DNA from: a virus
Taxonomy: Duplodnaviria > Heunggongvirae > Uroviricota > Caudoviricetes
Virus record (IMG/VR): IMGVR_UViG_2534681663_000023
Coordinates: 1 to 13,507 of that record
Reading direction: 5' to 3' (one strand)
DNA: 13,507 nt
Shown piece after piece: positions 1-13,507 of this stretch. Each line of letters begins with the position of its first letter. The stretch's first letter is position 1. The notes below the pieces were generated by a model. That model had not been told where the DNA came from. It saw only the letters and a program-made list of their open reading frames with translations, and did no database searches. Both the position numbers and the translations under genes were made by a program.

Positions 1-213
1 TTAAATTGTGCGGACGGCTACTGAACCGCAGCCGGTATTGATGAGAGTGAAGCACTTGCCCTTTAGCTCAAAGATGTATGCGGTTGCGTCTTTCATGTCA
101 AGTAACAAAGACTTTGTTGGCAGTTCAGTGAGTATGGCTGCTGCCCCATCATCGTCAATTGAAATCGTATGTCCGACCTCAAGGGCGATCAAATTAGAAG
201 TTATTTTTTTCAT
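1..213 (-). CDS. Hypothetical small protein (70 aa), complete with stop at 1-3
   Basis: ORF track; ATG at 213-211 preceded on the minus strand by GGATGA about 8 nt upstream; stop TAA is the reverse complement of positions 1-3. No recognisable family. The overlapping plus-strand ORF 8-337 looks less protein-like. Confidence 0.35.
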   Translation of the reverse strand: MKKITSNLIALEVGHTISIDDDGAAAILTELPTKSLLLDMKDATAYIFELKGKCFTLINTGCGSVAVRTI

Positions 214-469
214 TTCATATCATCCAACTGAACACGTAAATACCTTGCAATACTACTACCTATTGTATCAATACGGAATACTTATGTATCAAATACAACT
301 TAGTTTTAAGTTCTTAAATGAGTTATTTTTTAGATAGTTGTCTATTAATGAAGCCTTTTGCGGTCAGTAAACCTATGTAAAAAAATAGATAAGTCTTTAC
401 AACACTAACCTTTGATGTAATATCAGTAAGCACTTACCAAATAAAATCAAAACACGCAGGTTGATAATT

Positions 470-859
470 ATGGCTACCAACGAAACAAAAGAAGCTAAAG
501 TAAGTCGCTACGCTGCTTACATTGACGCTTTAATCGCGATTTCTCCGAAAAGCCAGGCGACCATCGCGAAAGAAGCAGGCTATAAAAACCCTAACAATCT
601 TTCACTTATCAAGAGCGGCAAAATCCCGCTTCCGATCGACAAGGTCAGAGCGTTGGCTAAAGCATTGGATGCCGATTCGGTCCGATTGATGCTAATGGTG
701 CTGGAAGAGCGTCATCCAGAGCTGTTAGCGTTTTTTCGCGACGAAGGCACAGCCCCTCTGACTAAAGATGAAAAACTAGTTCTGGAAGCCTTCCGTCGAC
801 GTTTCGGTGACCAACGTGGTGCGTCGGAGCGGGTTGTTGAGGCAATCAAGTCGCTATGA
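470..859 (+). CDS. Putative HTH DNA-binding regulator (about 129 aa), convergent with the integrase
   Basis: ORF track 461-859 begins at TTG; the first ATG is at 470 with AGG about 9 nt upstream. The segment SQATIAKEAGYKNPNNLSLIKSGKIPLPIDKVRALAKAL reads like a helix-turn-helix of the XRE/phage regulator kind. Its 3' end overlaps the integrase 3' end by 6 bp. Confidence 0.5.
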   Translation: MATNETKEAKVSRYAAYIDALIAISPKSQATIAKEAGYKNPNNLSLIKSGKIPLPIDKVRALAKALDADSVRLMLMVLEERHPELLAFFRDEGTAPLTKDEKLVLEAFRRRFGDQRGASERVVEAIKSL

Positions 860-1957
860 GAAATTTACACGGATTAGCTCAGTAGCGAGTCGATCTCCCT
901 TGAACTTATGATCTATCTCCTCTAAATCCTGTTTCTCTACGATTGATGCGATGTACGCCGAAAAACTGTTTAAGGCGTCTCGCATCTCGTCTATATAATC
1001 GTGTCGATCGTATACTCGATCTATCCCCTCAAGACTGTGGTTCATAATTTTGCGGGATACCTCCTGACTTATGCCTAACGCGGGGAAGTAACTACGCGCA
1101 GTACGACGCAAATCTCGGGGAGTAAATGGCTCAAGCTCCATCAACTCTGGACGTTCTAAAATCCTTCTCAACGCCTGTGATATGGCCACCTTAGACATTG
1201 GCACATCCTCACCCTGTTTCTTGTTTGAAGGAACAAGCCACTGGCTGCCTTTTCCGTATTTGATCAGCTCCTCAACACATTTGCGCATTAGCGGGCTTAA
1301 TGGTAACGAGTGCTGGCGAGCCGATTTATTCCTCGTTCCTTGATTCCATAAATTATATTCGAGGTTGAATTCTGATCTTTTAGCTCGGAGCACTTCATCT
1401 GGTCGTCTGGCCGCTACAAGGCATAATCTGGCCGCCCACTTTGTACCCTCACATACGTTGAAGTAGTCCCATACATTCCAAAAGACCCAGACCTCTGCGT
1501 CGGTCAGTTTGCGCTCGCGCGGCGTGGGCTTCGCGCCACCGGCTACTCTGTTAAGCGACATATCGTTCAATGGGGATGTATCAATTAAGCCCTGAAATGC
1601 ACACCAACTGAGAAACTGCTTCATCAGCGAGAACACACGTCTGCCCTGGACGATCTTGCCCTCAAGTATTAATGGGTTCACCAGCTGGTTGACTAAAACC
1701 CTACTAATATCACTTACTTTTACTTCACAGATATGCGGCATTACATGTATCAAAATACAATGAACAGCTATTTCAGGTCGACGTCTCGTTATCAGCAAAG
1801 ATAAGCGAGTGAATAACATGAATGCGGAAGAAAACGACATATCACCGTCGAAATTGGTGGTCGACACTGCTGACAAACCGGAAGCGCGTTCGAGATACTC
1901 GATGGCTTCTCTAGAGGTGTTTTCTGCTGCGCGTGCTTTATCAAAAGTGTTTTTCAT
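854..1957 (-). CDS. int: Tyrosine-type site-specific integrase, P4-like family; true start uncertain
   Basis: C-terminal catalytic region matches the phage integrase pattern: ARRPDEVLRAKRSEFNL (box I Arg), KSARQHSLPLSP, RDLRRTARSY, NHSLEGIDRVYDRHDY (catalytic Tyr). The first ~75 residues of the ORF do not look like the usual P4-type arm-binding domain, so the real start may be internal (for example the Met of MPHICEVKV). Confidence 0.8.
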   Translation of the reverse strand: MKNTFDKARAAENTSREAIEYLERASGLSAVSTTNFDGDMSFSSAFMLFTRLSLLITRRRPEIAVHCILIHVMPHICEVKVSDISRVLVNQLVNPLILEGKIVQGRRVFSLMKQFLSWCAFQGLIDTSPLNDMSLNRVAGGAKPTPRERKLTDAEVWVFWNVWDYFNVCEGTKWAARLCLVAARRPDEVLRAKRSEFNLEYNLWNQGTRNKSARQHSLPLSPLMRKCVEELIKYGKGSQWLVPSNKKQGEDVPMSKVAISQALRRILERPELMELEPFTPRDLRRTARSYFPALGISQEVSRKIMNHSLEGIDRVYDRHDYIDEMRDALNSFSAYIASIVEKQDLEEIDHKFKGDRLATELIRVNFS

Positions 1958-2054
1958 AGTCCACTCACTGAGTGAAGCCTGTTTTTACTGTATTTATAAA
2001 CAGTATGTTAGGCCTAAGTTTTGTATGATCAACAGTAAAATAGACTGTTTTTGA

Positions 2055-2089
2055 AAATGATTCCATACCTTACAAGTATGGAATCATTT
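2055..2089. repeat. Perfect 14-bp inverted repeat AAATGATTCCATAC / GTATGGAATCATTT with 7-bp spacer, about 100 bp upstream of the integrase start
   Basis: Read directly from the sequence; both arms contain the recurring motif ATGATTCCATAC. Candidate operator or recombinase binding site. Confidence 0.7.
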
Positions 2090-2256
2090 ATATAGCTTAC
2101 GTAAATTCTGAATAAATTATGTAGACAAACCATCTTAAACGCTAAATAGTAAAAAGCGCCTAATAACGCCAACTTTGGAATGCCATCTGAGCCAGATTGA
2201 TGAGAATGATTTGTTAGAAGAAAAAGAATGATGAAGAAGATGACGATCGCTAAAGT

Positions 2257-2673
2257 TCAGCTAGAATGGAAACCTTCTGCGACTTCAGCGAAGTAGCTGA
2301 GCAACCTAGTATCTCTTGCTGGCATACGATCGTGAGCTGGAGTGACTAGCCCCATCAGCAAAAAACGCCCGCTATCCCACATGTGCTCGGTATAAACGAG
2401 ATAGTGGTTTGAGGTTCGGTTGTAGTTCTCTTGCCTTGCGTTCCAGGTAAGCTGGAAATGCAAATTGACGTGAATATGCTGGACATTAGCATCAACGGCG
2501 AACGGCGGGAAGTCAAATGGCGCATCTCGTCCAAGAAGATTAGATGGTGCGCCAGTTGATTTGTAAGTAATGAACTCGGATTTGAGCTGACTTTCTAGGT
2601 CAGGGTAAACGACAAAAGTGGGCTGAAAAAAATCATCCCACGTAACTTGACTGTATTCAGCCGTTAATGCCAT
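2257..2673 (-). CDS. YafO-like type II toxin (putative ribosome-dependent mRNA interferase), 138 aa
   Basis: Blocks recalled from E. coli YafO appear in the same order: ITYKSTG...LLGRDAPFDFP, HIHVNLH, HYLVY, ARD. The start ATG overlaps the stop of the upstream gene (ATGGCATTAA). Identification is from memory and needs a profile search. Confidence 0.5.
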   Translation of the reverse strand: MALTAEYSQVTWDDFFQPTFVVYPDLESQLKSEFITYKSTGAPSNLLGRDAPFDFPPFAVDANVQHIHVNLHFQLTWNARQENYNRTSNHYLVYTEHMWDSGRFLLMGLVTPAHDRMPARDTRLLSYFAEVAEGFHSS

Positions 2674-3212
2674 TTAGCCGCAGCCTTGTTGCCAGTCTCT
2701 AATAGATGGTTCATGGCTAAAAGGTTGACACCAGAGTCACGCACTACAGAAGTGCGTGTAATCTGATCAATCAGATTGAGATAGTTTTTGGTCGCAATAC
2801 TGACCATTTTAATAGCCTTAAAAAACGCAAACTCAACAGTGTTTTTTTCGTAAGACATGATGACGTCTTTTTCAGGTAACATCAAAACAAAAGATTCTGC
2901 GATACCGGCTACATGAATAGTTTGATTCTTAATTTCTTCCGCTACTTTGATAGCAGCAAAGAAGTCAGTGTCAGCATAATGAGCAAGTTCAGCGCGGCTT
3001 GAACGCAGTTCTTTAGCCAATTCATTGAGAGCAGCTGTAAGATCACTGATGTCGGTTTTGTTGACTCTAGCGCCCATCTCATAAACCCGTTCTACAATCG
3101 TAGGCTGACACGCAACCGCTTTGGGTTGCGGCTGGATACTGGCAAGAACCAGTGCCACTGCTGCCTGCAAATGCTGGATTTTAAATTTCACGATAGACTC
3201 CATAATCGTCAT
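2664..3212 (-). CDS. Hypothetical protein (182 aa), translationally coupled upstream partner of the YafO-like toxin; possible atypical antitoxin
   Basis: ORF track; 8-nt overlap with the toxin start; no recognisable domain by eye; much larger than YafN or Phd-type antitoxins. Confidence 0.45.
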   Translation of the reverse strand: MTIMESIVKFKIQHLQAAVALVLASIQPQPKAVACQPTIVERVYEMGARVNKTDISDLTAALNELAKELRSSRAELAHYADTDFFAAIKVAEEIKNQTIHVAGIAESFVLMLPEKDVIMSYEKNTVEFAFFKAIKMVSIATKNYLNLIDQITRTSVVRDSGVNLLAMNHLLETGNKAAAKWH

Positions 3213-3293
3213 TTCTCGACGAAGCGTAGCATTCTACTACTGAACTTAACTATAAGCTAAAAAAAGTTGGTTGCATATGCGACTTGATAGCAA

Positions 3294-3320
3294 AAAGGGG
3301 CCGAAGCCCCTTTGGATTTT
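3294..3320. terminator. Bidirectional rho-independent terminator hairpin (GGGGC-CGAA-GCCCC) flanked by A/T runs
   Basis: On the minus strand the stem is followed by TTTTTG, which would terminate the tRNA-Asn transcript before the toxin module; on the plus strand it is followed by TTTGGATTTTG. Confidence 0.5.
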
Positions 3321-3387
3321 GCGCTGAAAAAAGTGTTGCTACGATGCTTAGAAGCAATGGTTAAAAAACGTCTGCCGTGTCTATCAC

Positions 3388-3462
3388 AGCGCTGAACGGT
3401 CTGGCGACATTTGCGGAGTCTTTCGTTCGGACGGTGGTGGCGAATCCAAACCGTTCAGCGCT
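3388..3462. repeat. Perfect 13-bp inverted repeat AGCGCTGAACGGT / ACCGTTCAGCGCT enclosing 49 bp, immediately 3' of the tRNA
   Basis: Read directly from the sequence. Lies between the tRNA 3' end (3467) and the terminator; could be a processing or structural element, or a small repeat element. Confidence 0.6.
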
Positions 3463-3466
3463 ATGT

Positions 3467-3541
3467 TGGCGATGGTGGGTGGACTCGAACCACCGACCAG
3501 TTGATTAACAGTCAACCGCTCTACCACTGAGCTACACCATC
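3467..3541 (-). tRNA. tRNA-Asn (anticodon GTT), 75 nt with encoded CCA
   Basis: Manual fold of the minus strand: acceptor GATGGTG/CACCATC, D-arm GCTC-AGTGGTA-GAGC, anticodon stem GTTGA/TCAAC with loop CTGTTAA (U33, GTT, A37), variable TGGTC, T-arm GGTGG-TTCGAGT-CCACC, discriminator G, CCA. Confidence 0.85.
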
Positions 3542-3704
3542 ATTTTCGCGGCGGTACTAGCTTATGGACAACCAGGCAGCCAGAAACTTTCCCGTAACTT
3601 GCACTTTACGTTAGTGCCAGACGAGGTATGTGGCTCGCTCATATGAGCGAAGATCTCGAATCTTTCTCGGTGGTTGATTGCCGTTAGATTCTTCGATCTT
3701 ATTG

Positions 3705-3719
3705 GATGTATGGAATCAT
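3705..3719. repeat. 15-bp direct repeat GATGTATGGAATCAT, copy 1 of 2 (second copy at 4725-4739)
   Basis: Exact 15-bp identity read from the sequence. Its reverse complement ATGATTCCATACATC carries the recurring motif. Copy 1 sits within the local palindrome ATGTATG-GAAT-CATACAT. Confidence 0.7.
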
Positions 3720-3790
3720 ACATGTTGTGAAGCCAGGGGCAATAAAGGCAACAATGTTTTCACTAGAGGGTTAATTAATCCTGCTTTCAC

Positions 3791-3900
3791 AACGTTGAGA
3801 TCACTGAACCGATTAATGTTCAACCCAACATATTGATCAGTCGCTACAGCTATGTGGAATCGCCTGTATGATTTTAAGAAAAATCAGTGATCTCAACGTT
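3791..3900. repeat. Perfect 17-bp inverted repeat AACGTTGAGATCACTGA / TCAGTGATCTCAACGTT separated by 76 bp, in an ORF-free region
   Basis: Read directly from the sequence; arms at 3791-3807 and 3884-3900. Candidate structured RNA or miniature inverted-repeat element. Confidence 0.65.
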
Positions 3901-4266
3901 ATGTGCTGACTAACCAAGTCAGCCGGGTTACGTCGCCGCTTTTAACCCAAGTATAAACGACATAAGTAATGGAAATGACGTAACAGAATGGACGGTCAGC
4001 TGAAACCGGGATGGGGGAATGGAATGATGAAACCAACCGCCCATTCTGTTACTTCATTGAATGGGGCATGGATGGTGCAATATGCCCTATTCTGCGTTCT
4101 GCAATCACACTCGCTCAGTGTGTCCCATTTTGGTGACGAGGCTGGAAACTGACCTCGCTGGTGTTTGGCTTCTTAGGCTACTGCCAGGTATGCATCTTCG
4201 TTTGCAGTTATATTTAACGTTCAAACAGTCGCATCTCAACGAAAACAAAGTGATCTTATACATATT

Positions 4267-4290
4267 AGATAAGTAAGTAAATACTTATCT
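4267..4290. terminator. Possible weak hairpin (AGATAAGTA / TACTTATCT, 6-nt loop) at the end of the small-ORF operon
   Basis: 9-bp AT-rich stem overlapping the stop of the 101-aa ORF; no strong U-run, so terminator function is uncertain. Confidence 0.25.
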
Positions 4291-4590
4291 ATCTGTGATG
4301 CGTTTAGTTGCTATCTTTTTGATCAGGCTCCCCTTTTGTTCCGAAGTTCTCATGATGATGGCGGTAAAACGCTTCGCTTGAATAGTGATAGTTTCGTTTT
4401 CCTTGAGTTCGCCGTAATGCGTCTCTAACAGGGACCCCAGACGCCACAGACCGTCGTCTATGCGTTTATGGCTGGCGAATCTGATCAGCAGTAGCTTTAC
4501 GATTAACTGACCAATGTAAAAGGCAAATCCGAAGCCGGCCGCCACAAGGTAGGTTGCCAGCCACCAGTCGAAGGAAGTCAAATTGCTCAT
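4285..4590 (-). CDS. Hypothetical small membrane protein (101 aa), last gene of the coupled small-ORF chain
   Basis: ORF track; N-terminal hydrophobic stretch WWLATYLVAAGFGFAFYIGQLIVKLLLI; its ATG overlaps the stop of the upstream 50-aa ORF (AAATGAGC). Confidence 0.45.
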   Translation of the reverse strand: MSNLTSFDWWLATYLVAAGFGFAFYIGQLIVKLLLIRFASHKRIDDGLWRLGSLLETHYGELKENETITIQAKRFTAIIMRTSEQKGSLIKKIATKRITDR

Positions 4591-5114: not shown

Positions 5115-5156
5115 TCTTTATCTCCAATACGATCTTCGGTATCTCGAAGACATTTA
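5111..5156 (-). other. Displaced native 3' end of the ligase gene (encodes ...CLRDTEDRLGDKE-stop), separated from the gene body by the transposon
   Basis: Joining the sequence right of the right-hand ATTTA to the sequence left of the left-hand ATTTA keeps the ligase frame open for 13 more codons and ends at TGA 5113-5111. Confidence 0.55.
5152..5156. repeat. Target-site duplication ATTTA, left copy (right copy at 10797-10801)
   Basis: Identical 5-bp sequence immediately outside each terminal inverted repeat; 5-bp duplications are typical of Tn3-family transposition. Confidence 0.8.
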
Positions 5157-5194
5157 GGGGAGCCCGCAGAATTCGGAAAAAATCGTACGCTAAG
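5157..5194 (+). repeat. Transposon terminal inverted repeat, tnpA-proximal (38 bp); contains the tnpA stop codon
   Basis: GGGG...ACGCTAAG architecture typical of Tn3-family ends; tnpA stop at 5190-5192 lies within it. Confidence 0.85.
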
Positions 5195-8156
5195 GTTTTC
5201 CGGGCATCCGTAAGGGCCGAAACTTCCCGTCTTCCAGTCTGCGGCTCTGCCGCCAGACGTAATCGCCGGTTAGGTTGATGTGCTCCCAGCCCAGCGGCGA
5301 CAGGAATTGCAGCAGCTCGCCGTCCACCGGCTTGCCGGCCTCGACCAACCCCTGGGTGGCGCGTTCCAGGTACACCGTGTTCCACAGCACGATAGCCGCC
5401 GTCACCAGGTTGAGGCCGCTGGCCCGGTAGCGCTGCTGCTCGAAGCTCCGATCCCTGATTTCCCCAAGGCGGTTGAAGAACACCGCCCTGGCCAGCGAGT
5501 TGCGCGCCTCACCTTTGTTCAGGCCGGCATGCACGCGGCGGCGCAGTTCAACACTTTGCAGCCAGTCCAGGATGAACAGCGTGCGCTCGATCCGGCCCAG
5601 CTCGCGCAGGGCCACGGCCAGTCCGTTCTGGCGCGGGTAGCTGCCGAGCTTGCGCAGCATCAGCGAGGCGGTGACGGTGCCCTGCTTGATCGAGCTGGCC
5701 AGGCGCAGGATGTCGTCCCAGTGGGCACGCACGTGCTTGATGTTCAGGGTGCCGCCGATCAGCGGGCGCAACGTCGGGTAGGCTTGCACGCCCTGCGGCA
5801 CGTACAGCTTGGTTTCGCCGAGGTCGCGGATGCGCGGCGCGAAGCGGAAGCCTAGCAGGTGCATCAGGGCAAAGACGTGATCGGTGAAGCCGGCCGTGTC
5901 GGTGTAGTGCTCCTCGATCCGCAGGTCGGACTCGTGGTACAGCAGGCCGTCGAGCACATAGGTGGAATCGCGGACGCCGACATTCACCACGCGGGTGCTG
6001 AACGGCGCGTACTGGTCGGAGATATGGGTATAGAACAGCCGTCCCGGCTCGCTACCGTACTTCGGGTTGACGTGCCCGGTGCTCTCGCCCCGGCCACCCG
6101 CGCGGAAGCGCTGGCCATCGGAGGATGAGGTCGTGCCGTCGCCCCAGTGGGCGGCAAAGGCGTGGCGATACTGGTGGTTGACCAGCTCGGCCAAGGCCGC
6201 CGAATAGGTTTCGTCGCGGATGTGCCAGGCTTGCAGCCAGGACAGCTTGGCGTAGGTCAGGCCGGGGCTCGACTCGGCCATCTTGGTCAGCCCGAGGTTG
6301 ATCGCATCACCGAGGATTGCGGACAGCAGCAACGTCCTGTCTTTGGCCTCGGCCCCGTCCTTCAAGTGGGTGAAGTGGCGGCTGAAGCCCGTCCAGTCGT
6401 CCACGTCCATCAGCAGTTCGGTGATCTTGATGCGCGGCAGTAACTGGCTGGTTTGGTCGATCAGCGCCTGCGCCCGATCCGGCACCGCCGCATCCAGCGG
6501 GGGGATTTTCAGCCCTGACTCGGTGAGGATGGCATCGGGCAGCTCGTTGTCCTTGGCCAGGCGGGTGACGGTGGCCAACTGCTCGTCCAGCAGCTGCAAA
6601 CGCTCTTCCAGGTACTGGTCGCTGTTCGGGTTGATCGCCAGGGGCAGGGCCTGCTCGCGCTTGAGTGCGGCGAACTTCTCGGCCGGCAGCAGGTAGTCGT
6701 CGAAGTCGCGGAACTGCCGCGAGCCCTTGACCCAGATGTCGCCGGAGCGCAGGGCGTTCTTCAGCTCGGACAGGGCGCAGATTTCGTAGAATTTCCGGTC
6801 GAGGCCTTCCGGGGTGATCACCAGCGGCTTCCAGCGCGGCTTGATGAAGGCCGTGGGTGCATCGGCCGGCACCTTGCGCAGGTTGTCGGCGTTCATCTCA
6901 CGCAGGGTCTGCACGGCTGCCAGCACGCCTTGCGCGGCCGGCGCGGCGCGCAGTTCCAGCACCTCCAGCAAGGCCGGCGTGTAACGGCGCAGGGTGGCGA
7001 AGTTCTCGCCGACCAGGTGCAGGTGGTCGAAGCCTTCCGGCCGGGCCAGCAGCTCGGCCTCGCTGACGCTCTCGGTGAACTCGTCCCAGGGAATCACCGC
7101 CTCGATGGCGGCATAGGGGTCGCTGCCGCTTTCCTTCGCTTCCAGCAGCGCCTGGCCGATCCTGGAGTACAGGCGCACCTTGTCGTTGATCGCCTTGCCC
7201 TGCTTCTGGAACTGCTGCTGATGCTTGTGCTTCGCGCCGCTGAACAGCTTGACCAGGATGCGGTCATGCAGATCGACCAGCTCATCGATCACGGTCGCGG
7301 TGCTCTCCAGCACCACGGCGGCCAGGGTCGCGTAGCGGCGCTGCGGCTCGAACTTACCGAGGGCTTTGGGCGTCATCTGCCCACCCTCGCGGGCCAGCTT
7401 GAGCAGGCGGTTCTGGTGGATGTGCCGGCCCAGGCCTTCGGGCAAGTCCACCAACTGAAATGTCTTCAGCCGCTCGATGTGTTCCAGCATGTGCCGAGAG
7501 TTGGGTTTCAGCGGTGCCTGGCGCAGCCAGGTCAACCAGGTGATGCTGCTGCCGGCCTTGAGCTTCAACAGCTCGTCCAGCTTGGCCCGATGCGAGTCCG
7601 TGAGTGGTTCGACCAGGGCGCGGTAGACCCGCCGATTGGCTCGCGCAATGGCTTCCGAGCAGGCCCGGTCAATCACGCTCAGCGCCGGCAGGATGCGTCG
7701 TTTCTGCCGTAGGCTCTCCAGGGCCTGACCGGCCAGCAGCAAGCCTTTGTCGGTCTGCTGGGCCAGCTCGGTTAGCTCGCGCACCAGGGCGCGGAAGTCG
7801 GACAGGCCGAACGGGGCCAGTTGCAGGTAGGTGCGCAGTTCCTGGGCATGCTCGCGACGGGTCACGTCGCGCTCGCCGTACTTTGCCCAGCTCGCCGGCT
7901 CGGCCTGGACTTGCTTCGCCACCCACAGGATGACCGGCTCGGGCAGCTCGCTGTCGGTTCCCAGCGCGTAACCGGGGTAGCGCAGCAGGCAGAGCTGCAC
8001 GGCGAAGCCGAGGCGGTTGGCGTCGCCGCGTCGCTGGCGGATCAGCGACAGGTCGGAGTCGTTGAAGGTGTAGTAGCGGATCAGGTCATCCTGGCTTTCC
8101 GGCAGCGCAAGCAGGGTGTCCCGCTCCGTGGCCGAGAGGATCAAGCGACGCGGCAT
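5190..8156 (-). CDS. tnpA: Tn3-family transposase TnpA (988 aa)
   Basis: Length and sequence ([44 protein letters not shown]...) match Tn21/Tn501-type TnpA as recalled; very GC-rich relative to its surroundings; terminates inside the terminal repeat. Confidence 0.95.
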
Positions 8157-8159
8157 GTG

Positions 8160-8720
8160 TCAGTCGTCCGTGCGGAGGTACTGGTAGAGGGTTTCCCGGC
8201 TGATGTTGAACTCGCGGGCAAGCTGCGCCTTGGGCTCGCCGGCCGTCGCTCGCTGCCGCAGGGTAGCAGCCTGCTCATCGGACAGGGCTTTCTTGCGGCC
8301 CCGGTACGCGCCACGCTGCTTGGCCAAGGCGATGCCCTCACGCTGCCGCTCGCGGATCAGGGCGCGCTCGAACTCAGCGAAGGCCCCCATCACCGACAGC
8401 ATCAGGTTGGCCATCGGCGAGTCCTCGCCAGTGAACACCAGGCCCTCCTTCAGGAACTCGATGCGCACGCCGCGCTGAGTCAGCTTCTGTACCAAGCGAC
8501 GCAGGTCATCGAGGTTGCGGGCCAGCCGATCCATGCTGTGCACCACCACTGTATCGCCTTCGCGGACGAAGCTCAGCAGCGCTTCGAGCTGGGGGCGCTG
8601 GGTGTCCTTGCCCGATGCCTTGTCGGTGAACACCTTGCTCACCTGGGTTTGTTCCAGCTGGCGTTCCGGGTTCTGGTCAAAGCTGCTGACCCGGACGTAG
8701 CCGATGCGGTGCCCCTGCAC
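8160..8720 (-). CDS. tnpR: Serine resolvase TnpR (186 aa)
   Basis: N-terminal serine-recombinase motif (IGYVRVSSFDQNPERQ), C-terminal HTH (ISRETLYQYLR); sits directly upstream of tnpA in the same orientation, as in the Tn21 subgroup. Confidence 0.95.
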   Translation of the reverse strand: MQGHRIGYVRVSSFDQNPERQLEQTQVSKVFTDKASGKDTQRPQLEALLSFVREGDTVVVHSMDRLARNLDDLRRLVQKLTQRGVRIEFLKEGLVFTGEDSPMANLMLSVMGAFAEFERALIRERQREGIALAKQRGAYRGRKKALSDEQAATLRQRATAGEPKAQLAREFNISRETLYQYLRTDD

Positions 8721-8724
8721 GATG

Positions 8725-8900
8725 TCTCCTTGGTTGAAGGCGGCTTAAGTGCACTTTCTGTTCCGTTGTGCCTCAAAGCCCATTTCTGTCAGGCTGAAAT
8801 CTATAACCTTCGCGGGCATGTGTCAAAAAATGGGAAAGCAGACTCTATTCTGACGAAGCGGCGCGGCCCTGCCTGACATCAAGTTAGGGTATAGCCTAGA
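8725..8900. promoter_or_regulatory. Putative res (resolution) site and tnpR promoter region
   Basis: Lies immediately upstream of tnpR and contains several TGTCA/TGACA half-site-like repeats (TGTCAGGCTGAAAT..., CATGTGTCA, CTGCCTGACATC). Exact subsite boundaries not determined. Confidence 0.5.
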
Positions 8901-9029
8901 TTGACATGCGCGATGCAACCCTTAACTTGCTTGCACCTATCGTTTCCATGCTAGCTTTATCGTAACGCTCAAGAAATTGGGCTTAATGCCGAAAACAATA
9001 AAATAAAACAGCCAACCCTTGAGGTTCTT

Positions 9030-10607
9030 ATGCGCCAGAATTTACCAGTGACGGGTCGAAACTTAGAACTCCCAAAAGATGCCAATATTCTTTCGACTAC
9101 CTCCCCTCAAAGCCATATCACGTACGTTAATCCTGACTTCATTAAAATCAGTGGTTTCACTGAGGAAGAACTATTAGGCCAGCCTCACAACATCGTAAGA
9201 CACCCAGATATGCCGCCTGCTGCATTTGAGCATATGTGGAGTACATTAAAATCTGGCCGCTCATGGATGGGGCTAGTAAAAAATCGCTGTAAAAATGGCG
9301 ACCACTATTGGGTAAGTGCTTATGTAACGCCAATAGCTAAGAATGGTTCGATTGTTGAATACCAGTCTGTAAGGACCAAGCCTGAACCTGAGCAGGTTTT
9401 GGCTGCGGAAAAATTATATGCTCAATTGAGAAGCGGGAAGGCCGCGAGGCCGAAATTGGCTGCTAGCTTTTCCGTGAAAATACTCTTGCTCATATGGGGT
9501 AGTATTATATCAAGCGCAATGGCTGCCGGCATGCTTACTGATACATCAATAAGCAGCTTATTGTTAGCCACTTTAATGTCAGGAAGCTTAAGCTCTGTTA
9601 GTGTTTTGGCTATTCTCTCTCCTCTTGGAAGACTGGTTGAAAGAGCCAGGAATATTTCCAATAACCCATTAAGTCAATCCCTCTACACTGGGCGCACCGA
9701 TGAGTTTGGCCAAATAGAGTTTGCTTTACGAATGATGCAAGCTGAAACAGGCGCCATAGTAGGTCGCATAGGTGATGCATCAAATCGGCTTAGCGAACAC
9801 ACCCGAGGCCTACTAAAGGATATTGAGTCAAGCAATGTACTTACAGTTGAGCAGCAGGCAGAGACAGATCAAATAGCAACGGCAGTAAACCAAATGGTGG
9901 CAAGCATTCAAGAGGTTGCGAGCAATGCACAGCATGCTGCAGATGCGGCCGGAAGAGCAGACACTGAGACGGCATCTGGCCAGCGTCTGGTAGCCCACAC
10001 AAGCCAGTCAATCACTGCCCTTGAAGGTGAAATTAGGCAAGCCACTCAGGTTATTCATGAGCTTGAAGGTCAAAGTAACGAGATATCAAAAGTTCTTGAC
10101 GTTATACGAGGGATCGCCGAGCAAACGAATTTGTTGGCACTCAACGCAGCAATTGAGGCCGCGCGTGCTGGTGAGCAGGGGCGTGGTTTTGCTGTTGTCG
10201 CCGATGAGGTTCGCAGTCTTGCTGCTCGCACACAGCAATCGACAACGGATATTCAAAGCATGATCAGCGCTCTACAAGAGCGAGCGCAATCCGCTGTTAC
10301 AGTCATGGAGCAAAGTAGTCGGCAAGCGCACACGAGTGTAGCTCACGCAGAGGAAGCAGCTACAGCTCTTGATGGAATTGGCCAACGCGTTAACGAAATT
10401 ACCGACATGAACGCGCAAATAGCGACTGCGGTCGAGCAGCAGGGAGCAGTAAGTGAAGACATAAACCGCAGTATTATCAATATACGCGATGCTGCTGATA
10501 CCAATGTACAGACCGGGCAGAATAATTTGCAAAGTGCGAAATCTGTCGCTCAGTTAACTAGCGCTCTGAGCGAACTGGCAAAACAGTTTTGGGAAAAACG
10601 AGGATAA
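9030..10607 (+). CDS. aer: Aer-like aerotaxis receptor (N-terminal PAS, membrane hairpin, methyl-accepting chemotaxis signalling domain), 525 aa; transposon passenger
   Basis: N-terminus closely resembles E. coli Aer PAS ([68 protein letters not shown]); hydrophobic hairpin near residues 150-195; conserved signalling core ([32 protein letters not shown]). Confidence 0.85.
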
Positions 10608-10626
10608 CGCTTTTCAGTATCTCGAC

Positions 10627-10661
10627 AGGGATAACTTACTTTACCATCGGTTATCCCTTTT
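10627..10661 (+). terminator. Rho-independent terminator after the chemoreceptor gene
   Basis: Hairpin AGGGATAAC-(14 nt)-GTTATCCCT followed by TTTT, about 20 bp after the stop codon. Confidence 0.5.
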
Positions 10662-10740
10662 AGCCGCACAAATTTTAGCCATGGCTTTTCAGGAAGTCAG
10701 GGCTATCAGAATGGCCTTAGAAAGCCTAGTCAAAGAGCTG

Positions 10741-12078
10741 TCACGAGAACACCGTTAGCTTAGCGTACGATTTTTTCCGAATTCTGCGGTTCCCCCATTT
10801 AGGCCACTTCAGACGTGGATGACGCAAGCTACCATCTGGCGTTTTCTCATGGCAGTGAACCTCAACGATGCGTCCACGATACTTCTCCTGATTGTTCCAG
10901 ATTTCATCCAGGTATTTATGCTTGATACCGCTGGCACGAACGATGACGCCGTTCTCCAGACGAATCACTATCTTGCCTAGCGTATGCGCAAATCCAGAAT
11001 CCGGATCGCCAGGCTCGAAGTCGATGATTTCACCGTCTTCTGAATCCTCGTCTTTCAGCTTCCACCAGCTGCGGGTACGTTTGAACTCGTAAACTGAATC
11101 CGGATCTTTGCCCATCTCTCCCTCTTCATTCTCGTCCAGTCGCTTCATGAAACGTTCGATGAAATCTTCGTGGCTATGGATGATGTAGAACGGATGAAGG
11201 TGGATATCTTGCGCATAATCTTCCACGCAAGTGTTGCGGAACAACGCCACCAGCATAGCCAGGCGCTCTTTCAGCTTCATACCGGTCTTCAGGTACTCTT
11301 TGCTTTTTGCTTGAGCACGCCACTCCGGTAAGAAGAAATCGAAAATGTGGTAAACGGCACCAATGGCTTTCACGTTCTTCTTACGAAGCGCCGACACTGA
11401 CTGGTTGAATGTACCTGCAGTGCCCTCTCCATCGAAGAAGATGTGATTGAAGCCGGAGAGTCTGCCCCGCTCCAGCATGGCTGGTTTAAGGTGATCGAGT
11501 GACGTAATCGGATTGCCGGTGCGCGTCAGGAAATTGACCTCACCCTCGTCCACGATGACTTCGCAGATAACCCGGAGACCATCGAGTTTGAGACTGCCGA
11601 TCATTGGCCACTTGGCCTTTGGATTTGGTTTAAATGGGTATTTGTCGCCTTTCTCCTTGTACGGAGACGCCAGCTGTACCTCAAACTTCGGAATTGGGTT
11701 TTCGAACACCTTGTTGCACAGGCTGATGCCGACACCGGCTTTCGGATCTTTCAGCAGGAAGCGACGAAACACGTCCTGCCCGTCAGCGCACATCGAGGCA
11801 ACGAGTGATTCGACAGCAGCAATAGCGATGTTCCCGGTCAGTTCGCGCGCTGCCAGCTTCTCCAGCAGATCTACTACCTTCTGGTCGCTGGGTACGGAAG
11901 TATCGAGTGGCTCGGCCACTTTGTACTTCTTCACACCGAATCGAATGAATGGATTGAGCATTAGCGAGACCATGCTCTGTTCAAATTCATCCAGATTGGC
12001 CAGCGCCTCTTTCTTGGCGTTGGTTCCCATCGTTTTAATAGCATCCAGCTTGTGCTTTAGGGCGATCAGTTTTTCCAT
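10741..12078 (-). CDS. T4-type ATP-dependent DNA ligase; 3' end interrupted by the transposon (last 18 codons of this ORF are read from the ATTTA duplication and terminal repeat)
   Basis: Nucleotidyltransferase motifs in order: I KLDGLR, III FFDGEG, IIIa YHIFDF, IV EGEMGKD, V WWKLK, VI LRHPRL. N-terminal region parallels T4 ligase as recalled (LTGNIAIAAV, ISLCNKVFENPIP, LASPYKEKG). GGAGG lies about 10 nt upstream of the ATG. Confidence 0.85.
   Translation of the reverse strand: MEKLIALKHKLDAIKTMGTNAKKEALANLDEFEQSMVSLMLNPFIRFGVKKYKVAEPLDTSVPSDQKVVDLLEKLAARELTGNIAIAAVESLVASMCADGQDVFRRFLLKDPKAGVGISLCNKVFENPIPKFEVQLASPYKEKGDKYPFKPNPKAKWPMIGSLKLDGLRVICEVIVDEGEVNFLTRTGNPITSLDHLKPAMLERGRLSGFNHIFFDGEGTAGTFNQSVSALRKKNVKAIGAVYHIFDFFLPEWRAQAKSKEYLKTGMKLKERLAMLVALFRNTCVEDYAQDIHLHPFYIIHSHEDFIERFMKRLDENEEGEMGKDPDSVYEFKRTRSWWKLKDEDSEDGEIIDFEPGDPDSGFAHTLGKIVIRLENGVIVRASGIKHKYLDEIWNNQEKYRGRIVEVHCHEKTPDGSLRHPRLKWPKWGNRRIRKKSYAKLTVFS
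10759..10796 (-). repeat. Transposon terminal inverted repeat, passenger-proximal (38 bp)
   Basis: Reverse complement matches the tnpA-proximal repeat at 35 of 38 positions; followed immediately by ATTTA. Confidence 0.85.
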
Positions 12079-13126: not shown

Positions 13127-13507
13127 TGAACCGCCCCGGAAATCCTGGAGACTAAACTCCCTGAGAAAGAGGTAAACAGGATGACTAAAAATACTCGTTT
13201 TTCCCCCGAAGTCCGTCAGCGGGCGATTCGTATGGTTCTGGAAAGTCAGGATGAATATGACTCACAGTGGGCGGCAATTTGTTCCATTGCCCCAAAGATT
13301 GGCTGTACGCCGGAGACTCTGCGTGTCTGGGTTCGCCAGCATGAGCGGGATACCGGGGGCGGTGATGGTGGGCTCACCAGCGCTGAACGTCAGCGTCTGA
13401 AAGAGCTGGAACGTGAAAATCGTGAACTGCGCCGCAGTAACGATATCCTTCGCCAGGCTTCCGCTTATTTTGCGAAGGCGGAGTTCGACCGCCTCTGGAA
13501 AAAATGA
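13127..13507 (+). mobile_element. IS3-family insertion sequence (IS629/IS1203-like), left end; continues beyond the window
   Basis: Terminal sequence TGAACCGCCCCGGAAATCCTGGAG... followed about 55 bp later by an OrfA-type gene; matches the IS629-like left end as recalled. Confidence 0.8.
13181..13507 (+). CDS. IS3-family transposase OrfA (108 aa, HTH plus leucine zipper)
   Basis: [23 protein letters not shown]...[34 protein letters not shown] is the typical IS3 OrfA; ends at an A6 run before TGA, consistent with the programmed -1 frameshift site into OrfB, which lies outside the window. Confidence 0.9.

Follow-up and report, generated by a model that had tools for sequence, protein, structure and literature searches.

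The toxin gene and its upstream partner

The window analysed in the present study, 13,507 nucleotides (nt) of the IMG/VR virus record IMGVR_UViG_2534681663_000023, carries on its minus strand a pair of overlapping genes that we interpret as a putative toxin-antitoxin cassette. The downstream gene (2257..2673, minus) encodes a 138-residue protein of the YafO toxin family, and the upstream open reading frame (ORF), delimited mechanically as 2664-3212, reaches ATG 3212 and would encode 182 residues. Both ORFs exist with the lengths given in the original prediction, which was made from the sequence and without database searches, and they overlap by 10 nt. The pair also lies, as stated there, between a tyrosine recombinase (integrase) gene (854-1957) and a tRNA-Asn gene (3467-3541), on what we take to be the backbone of an SSU5/pHCM2-like phage-plasmid.

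The proposed likeness of the 138-residue protein to YafO was borne out by profile search. Pfam PF13957 (YafO_toxin) matched it with E=1.1e-19 and 70.8 bits (gathering cut-off 25), toxin residues 36-136 corresponding to profile positions 2-100 of 101, and phrog_1651 matched with E=2.7e-22. The protein is 31% identical to YafO of Escherichia coli K-12 over 111 aligned residues and keeps the residues that are invariant with it. Its score against the NCBIfam equivalog NF007377 is 52.1 bits, below the cut-off of 153; thus, the protein belongs to the YafO family but does not qualify as the E. coli orthologue. The predicted fold, beta-alpha-alpha-beta4-alpha, is RelE/HigB-like and places the protein in the RelE superfamily. 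K-12 YafO was shown experimentally to be a translation-dependent mRNA interferase that is neutralised by YafN (PMC2814082). By homology, the 138-residue protein should likewise cleave mRNA on translating ribosomes.

The 182-residue ORF of the partner exists, but the protein is likely shorter. Its true start is most likely GTG 3191, giving a gene of 175 codons (2664..3191, minus), and the annotation by the Prokaryotic Genome Annotation Pipeline also begins there. A GGAG Shine-Dalgarno sequence (3198..3201, minus), kept in the upstream regions of subfamily A of the partner family, lies 6 nt 5' of this codon, and the equivalent codon opens the homologues as ATG, GTG or TTG. No conservation is seen at the ATG codons upstream of GTG 3191, and in the Klebsiella homologue a stop codon interrupts the frame just before that position. 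The original prediction had not mentioned this shorter start.

As had been proposed, the partner is unlike YafN and Phd-type antitoxins. It had no significant match in Pfam, NCBIfam, PHROG or PADLOC, and BLASTP gave no alignment with K-12 YafN at E<=100. When 16 diverse members were scanned, no family recurred and no Phd/YefM-type Pfam family appeared at E<=1. The N-terminal alpha/beta DNA-binding dimerisation domain of the Phd-YefM type was not found in the partner, and a weak match to RHH_1 (E=0.07) falls within a long helix. Profile matches in the PDB were restricted to designed coiled coils and designed ankyrin repeat proteins (DARPins), which we dismissed as compositional. The partner belongs to a very small, all-alpha orphan family. 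A word-based search returned 39 relatives, all of them 'hypothetical proteins' of Enterobacterales, and only 24 clusters of the family came up when 1.84 billion representatives were searched exhaustively by profile.

Coupling of the two genes

The overlap ATGGCATTAA (2664..2673, minus) places the toxin ATG inside the final codons of the partner gene, in ...AAATGGCATTAA, an arrangement that points to translational coupling. The junction AAATGGCnnTAA/TGA recurs in most of the loci examined, and the Shine-Dalgarno sequence of the toxin gene is weak. Upstream of the partner gene, a promoter-like element, TTAGCT-18 nt-TAGAAT (3231..3260, minus), is conserved in subfamily A, being kept in E. coli, Kluyvera, Enterobacter, Pantoea, Leclercia, Erwinia and Klebsiella, and may be the promoter of the pair; it is too weak to reach the threshold of a consensus scan. 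Promoter-like sites inside both genes occur at chance frequency. Just upstream of the element lies the imperfect palindrome GTCGCATATGCAAC (3270..3283), a candidate operator that is conserved only partly among relatives. About 90 nt past the toxin stop codon, a terminator-like hairpin with a T-run (2155..2170, minus) would end the bicistronic unit. We also considered an RNA antitoxin or a known cis-acting RNA, and a small third ORF; Rfam returned the tRNA alone, and the flanking gaps hold nothing conserved.

The two genes are adjacent, co-oriented and coupled, and they are paired in different contexts (see below), as in type II toxin-antitoxin systems in general. We think it somewhat probable that they form a bicistronic, translationally coupled toxin-antitoxin cassette, in which the YafO-family toxin is neutralised by a member of a new all-helical partner family. 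The original prediction of a new antitoxin class or another two-gene module agrees with this: the pair is conserved and coupled, and its comparative genetics fit an antitoxin.

Distribution and exchange of the cassette

A toxin-profile scan of one genome per species (185,579 GTDB species) gave 11 loci, 10 of them in the subfamily, and an intact partner gene lies directly upstream of the toxin gene in all 10. Both genes are present in 17 of 18 IMG/VR loci, the remaining locus being a toxin stub alone, and at every metagenome locus with enough sequence. Distant full-length partners (20-31% identity) were traced to their contigs, and on each contig a YafO-family ORF comes after the partner gene, in most cases with the 10-nt overlap. 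The cassette occurs in phage-plasmids of E. coli, Klebsiella and Kluyvera and in 83 Enterobacter plasmids, many of them conjugative; in an Erwinia chromosome its neighbours are genes for a chemoreceptor and a Dak kinase, and in a further context it is set between efflux genes.

The two proteins have diverged together. Partner and toxin identities are correlated with r=0.96 (14 pairs, 91 comparisons), the partner being the more diverged protein in 89 of the 91 comparisons. The divergence of the cassette does not follow that of its surroundings: between the window and a Kluyvera element (L023), the integrases are 91% identical, the toxins 44% and the partners 29%, whereas between the Kluyvera element and a metagenomic element, the integrases are 54% and the toxins 73% identical. 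Because the identities of integrase and cassette disagree in this way, the cassette appears to have been swapped between backbones as a unit.

Correlated divergence can arise from linkage alone, and the two genes might therefore be mere neighbours, functionally unlinked and co-inherited on a mobile backbone. We consider this very improbable, since the pair recurs in unrelated contexts with no common flanking gene, is exchanged between backbones as a unit and retains the overlapping stop and start codons, and since both genes decay together.

At least three strongly diverged cassette types share the integrase-side slot in SSU5-like phage-plasmids (window 2257-3191; L023 2486-3417; L007 2278-3209; L053 871-1908), a pattern suggestive of alleles being replaced under diversifying pressure. 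In a divergent SSU5-like element (L007 1063-1499 and L008 1035-1471), the cassette lies just downstream of genes that match the Pfam family Sequestin and, weakly, the Acb2/Tad1 hairpin, both of which are anti-defence 'sponge' families. Genes for PhoH and glutaredoxin are also near the cassette of L007 and L008.

A C-terminal module shared with other phage-borne pairs

The partner has a conserved C-terminal two-helix module (2667..2828, minus; codons 122-175), which we propose as the toxin-binding region. It follows the pattern ...LIDQ...A-M-x-x-L-x-x-G-N-x-A-A-x-W-H, and the six invariant columns in an alignment of diverse partners, at residues 126-167, all fall within it. The module extends beyond the family. 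YafO toxins of a wider clade (27-31% identity), found in HK639, Pseudomonas phage YMC11/02/R656, E. coli phage PhiR40_1 and Klebsiella pJN2-26, are each preceded, at a distance of 8-16 nt, by an uncharacterised gene of 179-205 codons. Comparison of the partner family with these four partners by hhalign gave a probability of 94.5% and E=8e-8 over columns 122-169 (48 columns), and the shared two-helix module terminates in (W/F)H.

Clusters of the PhiR40 type and of the Pseudomonas type were found on hundreds to more than 1,000 contigs. The HK639 pair is situated in the tail region beside another lipoprotein gene, a moron-like position in a prophage, and the pJN2-26 pair, a third cassette type, fills the same glutaredoxin-to-integrase slot of an SSU5-like element. 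The N-terminus is signal-like in two of the four wider-clade partners, those of the Pseudomonas phage and PhiR40; the segment is weak in HK639, and in pJN2-26 it is basic and probably disordered instead. The partners of pJN2-26 and HK639 thus have no convincing signal, yet they keep the C-terminal module and the toxin.

The PhiR40_1 partner is labelled 'YafM antitoxin' in GenBank (PV340560.1; L054 222-761), as an annotation label only. No publication behind this name was found in the literature that we searched. The label is potentially misleading, as yafM of K-12 is presumably an unrelated, transposase-like gene.

Natural variants

Among Escherichia plasmids in PLSDB, 43 match the partner and 31 match the toxin. 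A toxin-less variant (about 12 of the 43 plasmids; e.g. L031 2501-2995, NZ_CP115313.1) has a clean deletion of the toxin gene together with the last 11 codons of the partner gene. Disruption of the partner gene, on the other hand, was accompanied by a damaged toxin gene in every case except one, an Enterobacter roggenkampii contig (L025) discussed below. The partner gene was lost by fusion with an insertion sequence (IS) in L027 and L028, where the toxin has 119 residues; L030 retains decayed fragments of both genes; an ars insertion in L032 left a stub of 104 residues; and in L038, only toxin residues 32-138 are left and the partner is absent. The toxin gene has thus been lost alone, and with that single exception, the partner gene has, among the variants examined, never been lost beside an intact toxin gene, which fits an antitoxin role for the partner, with the number of independent loss events behind this asymmetry being small.

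The signal-like N-terminus and the proposed role of the partner

The first 28 codons of the partner gene (3108..3191, minus) encode a segment resembling a signal peptide, MKFKIQHLQAAVALVLASIQPQPKAVA (followed by Cys), a feature that the original prediction had not mentioned. It has a basic n-region, a hydrophobic core of 10-12 residues and a Pro-containing c-region with A-V-A at positions -3/-1; as far as a heuristic can tell, it has the tripartite n-h-c organisation and the small residues at -3/-1 of a Sec-type signal. All 16 aligned members of the core family have a short basic stretch, a uniformly hydrophobic core of 10-15 residues and a polar region rich in Ala, Gly and Ser. Their 10-residue hydrophobicity peak, a simple heuristic of our own, was 2.2-2.7 (16 of 16 members); the peak of 8 known signal peptides falls in the same range (1.9-2.8), and that of 6 cytoplasmic antitoxins is lower (0.3-1.8). 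No other predicted helix of the protein is as hydrophobic as this segment or has so low an amphipathic moment. AlphaFold2 (AF2) predicts it to be helical, with a predicted local distance difference test (pLDDT) score of 70-79, and the linker that joins it to the helical bundle has low confidence (pLDDT 58-65). Across subfamilies, the n-h-c character is shared but the sequence is not conserved. Within subfamily A, the first 28 residues are 79% identical as against 65-69% for the rest, with synonymous changes present; a mere signal peptide would not usually be conserved to this degree, and the segment may have an additional role.

Other explanations of the segment were rejected. The window partner was rejected as a lipoprotein, as Lys at -4 breaks the lipobox (PROSITE PS00013-type pattern). 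The hydrophobic core of only 10-12 residues, with a 19-residue Kyte-Doolittle average of 1.2 (0.9-1.6 across the family), is too short for a membrane span, and thus a transmembrane anchor is unlikely. A spanin was rejected on context, as the pair recurs as a two-gene cassette on chromosomes and on plasmids, and its toxin lacks a lipobox.

If the cassette is a toxin-antitoxin system, the 175-residue all-helical partner would be the cognate neutraliser, an antitoxin of an undescribed family, and would most likely bind the toxin via the conserved C-terminal two-helix module. The cassette would then be an accessory gene pair ('moron') of the SSU5-like phage-plasmid that stabilises the element by post-segregational killing and might also act in abortive infection. 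The signal-like segment would direct free partner to the translocon or the inner membrane, and Sec targeting could keep the cytoplasmic pool of the partner short-lived, in place of the proteolytic lability of classical antitoxins. That the YafO clade of prophages, phage-plasmids and plasmids is controlled by an antitoxin that is a substrate of Sec or lipoprotein export is a more specific proposal, which we put forward tentatively and consider rather doubtful. If it is true, release of the toxin would be set by the state of secretion or of the envelope together with continued synthesis, and not by Lon/Clp proteolysis, and such an export-coupled toxin-antitoxin or abortive-infection logic would be new.

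Several points weigh against neutralisation of the toxin by the partner. One would not expect an antitoxin to carry a signal-like N-terminus, yet all 16 core members do so, as judged by heuristics, and simple sequestration of a toxin in the cytoplasm is not open to a protein that is exported. The partner in the Pseudomonas phage fits the lipoprotein (lipobox) pattern and bears the name 'Lipoprotein' in UniProt. No DNA-binding domain was detected in the window partner by Pfam, NCBIfam or fold search, and autoregulation typical of type II systems is therefore unsupported. The literature that we searched contains no experiment on this family. As for the variants, all toxin-less records among the matches listed have the same deletion boundary, and thus the loss of the toxin gene was probably one ancestral event. 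Finally, in the Enterobacter roggenkampii contig L025 (4290-4360), the partner gene is frameshifted and the toxin gene is intact. The shift is a difference between A8 and A9 in a homopolymer of the Enterobacter partner gene, and in plasmids 99.9% identical to the contig this stretch has one base more, as would be the case if the contig lacked an A. We therefore discounted this contig as a counter-example: the frameshift is probably a sequencing error, phase variation being a less probable alternative.

In a rival explanation, the partner would truly be exported, to the periplasm or, in some clades, as a lipoprotein, and would act in the envelope without binding the toxin in the cytoplasm. Superinfection exclusion or envelope sensing would be possible roles; the toxin would be restrained otherwise, for example by very low, coupling-dependent translation, and the pair would be an envelope-linked abortive-infection or exclusion module. 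The signal-like N-termini of all 16 core members, which are within the hydrophobicity range of known signal peptides, agree with this, as do the uniformly hydrophobic, non-amphipathic first helix, the lipobox of the Pseudomonas phage homologue and the failure to detect a DNA-binding domain. The moron-like positions in prophages, such as that of the HK639 pair, are also compatible with it, as is the weak Shine-Dalgarno sequence of the toxin gene, whose start lies within the last codons of the partner gene. We nevertheless regard it as unlikely, though worth keeping in view: the partners of pJN2-26 and HK639 keep the C-terminal module and the toxin with no convincing signal, an intact toxin gene without a partner occurs, among the variants examined, only in the poly-A frameshift of L025, and the first 28 residues in subfamily A are more conserved than would be usual for a signal peptide.

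The same conservation, with its synonymous changes, indicates stronger purifying selection on the N-terminal segment within subfamily A and would suit a second rival, in which the partner is a conventional type II antitoxin that stays in the cytoplasm; its sequence family would be new, and its N-terminus would be a buried or dimerisation helix and no export signal. The helix predicted by AF2 is consistent with this, and partners are known to be interchanged among toxin-antitoxin families, unclassified antitoxins having been noted beside YafO (PMC3141249). On the other side, the segment retains n-h-c character alone between subfamilies, its hydrophobic moment is the lowest of all helices, a low-confidence linker splits it from the bundle, it often ends in Ala/Gly/Ser-rich motifs resembling cleavage sites, and one homologue fits the lipoprotein pattern. 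A purely cytoplasmic antitoxin therefore seems improbable to us. We continue to favour a coupled toxin-antitoxin cassette in which the all-helical partner neutralises the YafO-family toxin.

Setting of the cassette in the window

Over its first 4.3 kb, the window shares 99.9% identity with plasmids of E. coli that measure 105-115 kb. We found 377 matching places in a set of 5,426 complete genomes of this species, all of them plasmid-borne (377 of 377) and none chromosomal. Genes on the reference plasmid include dnaE, a CobT-like gene, a DNA ligase gene, a LAGLIDADG (homing) endonuclease gene and phd/doc. These results do not support the earlier idea that the pair is an island-stabilising module at a tRNA: the backbone is that of a phage-plasmid, the tRNA-Asn(GTT) gene (3467-3541, on the minus strand as is the pair) is carried by the element itself, and positions 1-4300 contain no direct repeat of the tRNA 3' end that could mark an island border. 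Furthermore, a Klebsiella phage-plasmid has the same pair beside the same integrase gene and lacks the tRNA gene, and the cassette is found in chromosomes and in conjugative plasmids of Enterobacter away from any integrase or tRNA gene.

Several other features of the window were noted. Between the toxin terminator and the integrase start, two 14-nt arms, AAATGATTCCATAC / GTATGGAATCATTT, form a perfect inverted repeat (2055-2089) around a spacer of 7 nt, and a related copy, TGATTCCATA, is within the integrase gene (1341-1355); the repeat may be a site for a recombinase or a regulator. Immediately downstream of the tRNA-Asn gene is a 20-nt inverted repeat, 90% complementary, the arms of which are 41 nt apart (3385-3465). 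A GC-rich hairpin with a T-run comes next, near 3287-3306, and both structures may serve in tRNA processing or termination. A gene on the plus strand (461-859) for a 132-residue helix-turn-helix protein, which matches the transcriptional regulator family phrog_8 (E=1e-10) and weakly PADLOC capH (E=0.003), is convergent with the integrase gene, the 3' ends overlapping by 6 nt.

A complete Tn3-family transposon (5157-10796) has 38-bp terminal inverted repeats (GGGGAGCCCGCAGAATTCGG...) and is flanked by a 5-bp target duplication, ATTTA, at 5152-5156 and 10797-10801. It carries tnpA (5190-8156), tnpR (8160-8720) and a gene for a PAS-domain methyl-accepting chemotaxis protein (9030-10607), and its GC content is about 66%, as against about 45% for the backbone. 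We assume that it resembles Tn1722, the core of Tn1721. The transposon replaces the 3' end of the DNA ligase gene of the phage-plasmid (10741-12078). At the window edge, orfA of an IS3-family transposase begins (13181-13507); on the reference plasmid, degraded copies of IS3 and a fimbrial operon of the yehD type lie past this edge.

Comparison with known systems

Among the RelE-type toxins, YafO has received comparatively little study, and what is known of it comes almost entirely from the yafNO locus of the chromosome. In a survey by Leplae et al. in 2011, YafO toxins were paired with Phd and with unclassified antitoxins, and none was then found on plasmids or phages (PMC3141249). The present analysis indicates a distinct YafO clade on mobile elements, throughout which the toxin has an unnamed partner family of its own. 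The clade is carried by SSU5-like phage-plasmids, which are clinically common in E. coli and Klebsiella, by many Enterobacter plasmids and by prophages of E. coli and P. aeruginosa. If the partner is an antitoxin, it would define a family of antitoxins not described so far, in which the toxin-binding module at the C-terminus is portable. If the signal peptide is real, the toxin would be, as judged from the literature that we searched, the first of the RelE type to be governed by an exported protein, and plasmid addiction or phage defence would be tied to the secretion machinery. That literature includes no study of this pair.

The closest known system is yafN-yafO in the dinB operon of K-12. 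Its toxin likewise belongs to PF13957, with 31% identity and eleven invariant residues in common, and the gene in the antitoxin position likewise lies upstream of and close to the toxin gene. However, YafN is a 97-residue protein of the Phd/YefM type, whereas the partner in the cassette has 175 residues, is all-helical with a signal-like N-terminus and has no sequence similarity to YafN. The toxin of the cassette has an extra N-terminal strand-helix segment that is absent from K-12 YafO, and the K-12 pair is in an SOS-regulated operon, whereas the pair described here is borne by plasmids or phages. Other ribosome-dependent mRNA interferases, RelE, HigB, YoeB and YafQ, are only 6-15% identical to the toxin, and their partners, RelB, HigA, YefM or DinJ, have DNA-binding domains.

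The pairs HK639_17/18, YMC11/02/R656 gp093/gp092, pJN2-26 0104/0105 and PhiR40_1 'YafM/YafO' also combine a YafO toxin with a partner that shares the C-terminal module; their genes are adjacent and do not overlap as those of the window do, and their N-termini are variable. No experimental characterisation of these pairs was found in the same literature. In toxin-antitoxin-chaperone (TAC) systems with a SecB-like chaperone, the stability of an antitoxin has already been linked to components of an export pathway (PMC5105189). The cassette has neither a third gene nor a SecB-like protein, and the link would be made by the signal-like peptide of the partner itself. We conclude that the pair represents a new partner class for YafO and not a tRNA-island module. 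It is best regarded as a new kind of variant among type II toxin-antitoxin systems, distinguished from the textbook examples by the signal-like N-terminus and the missing DNA-binding domain of the partner.

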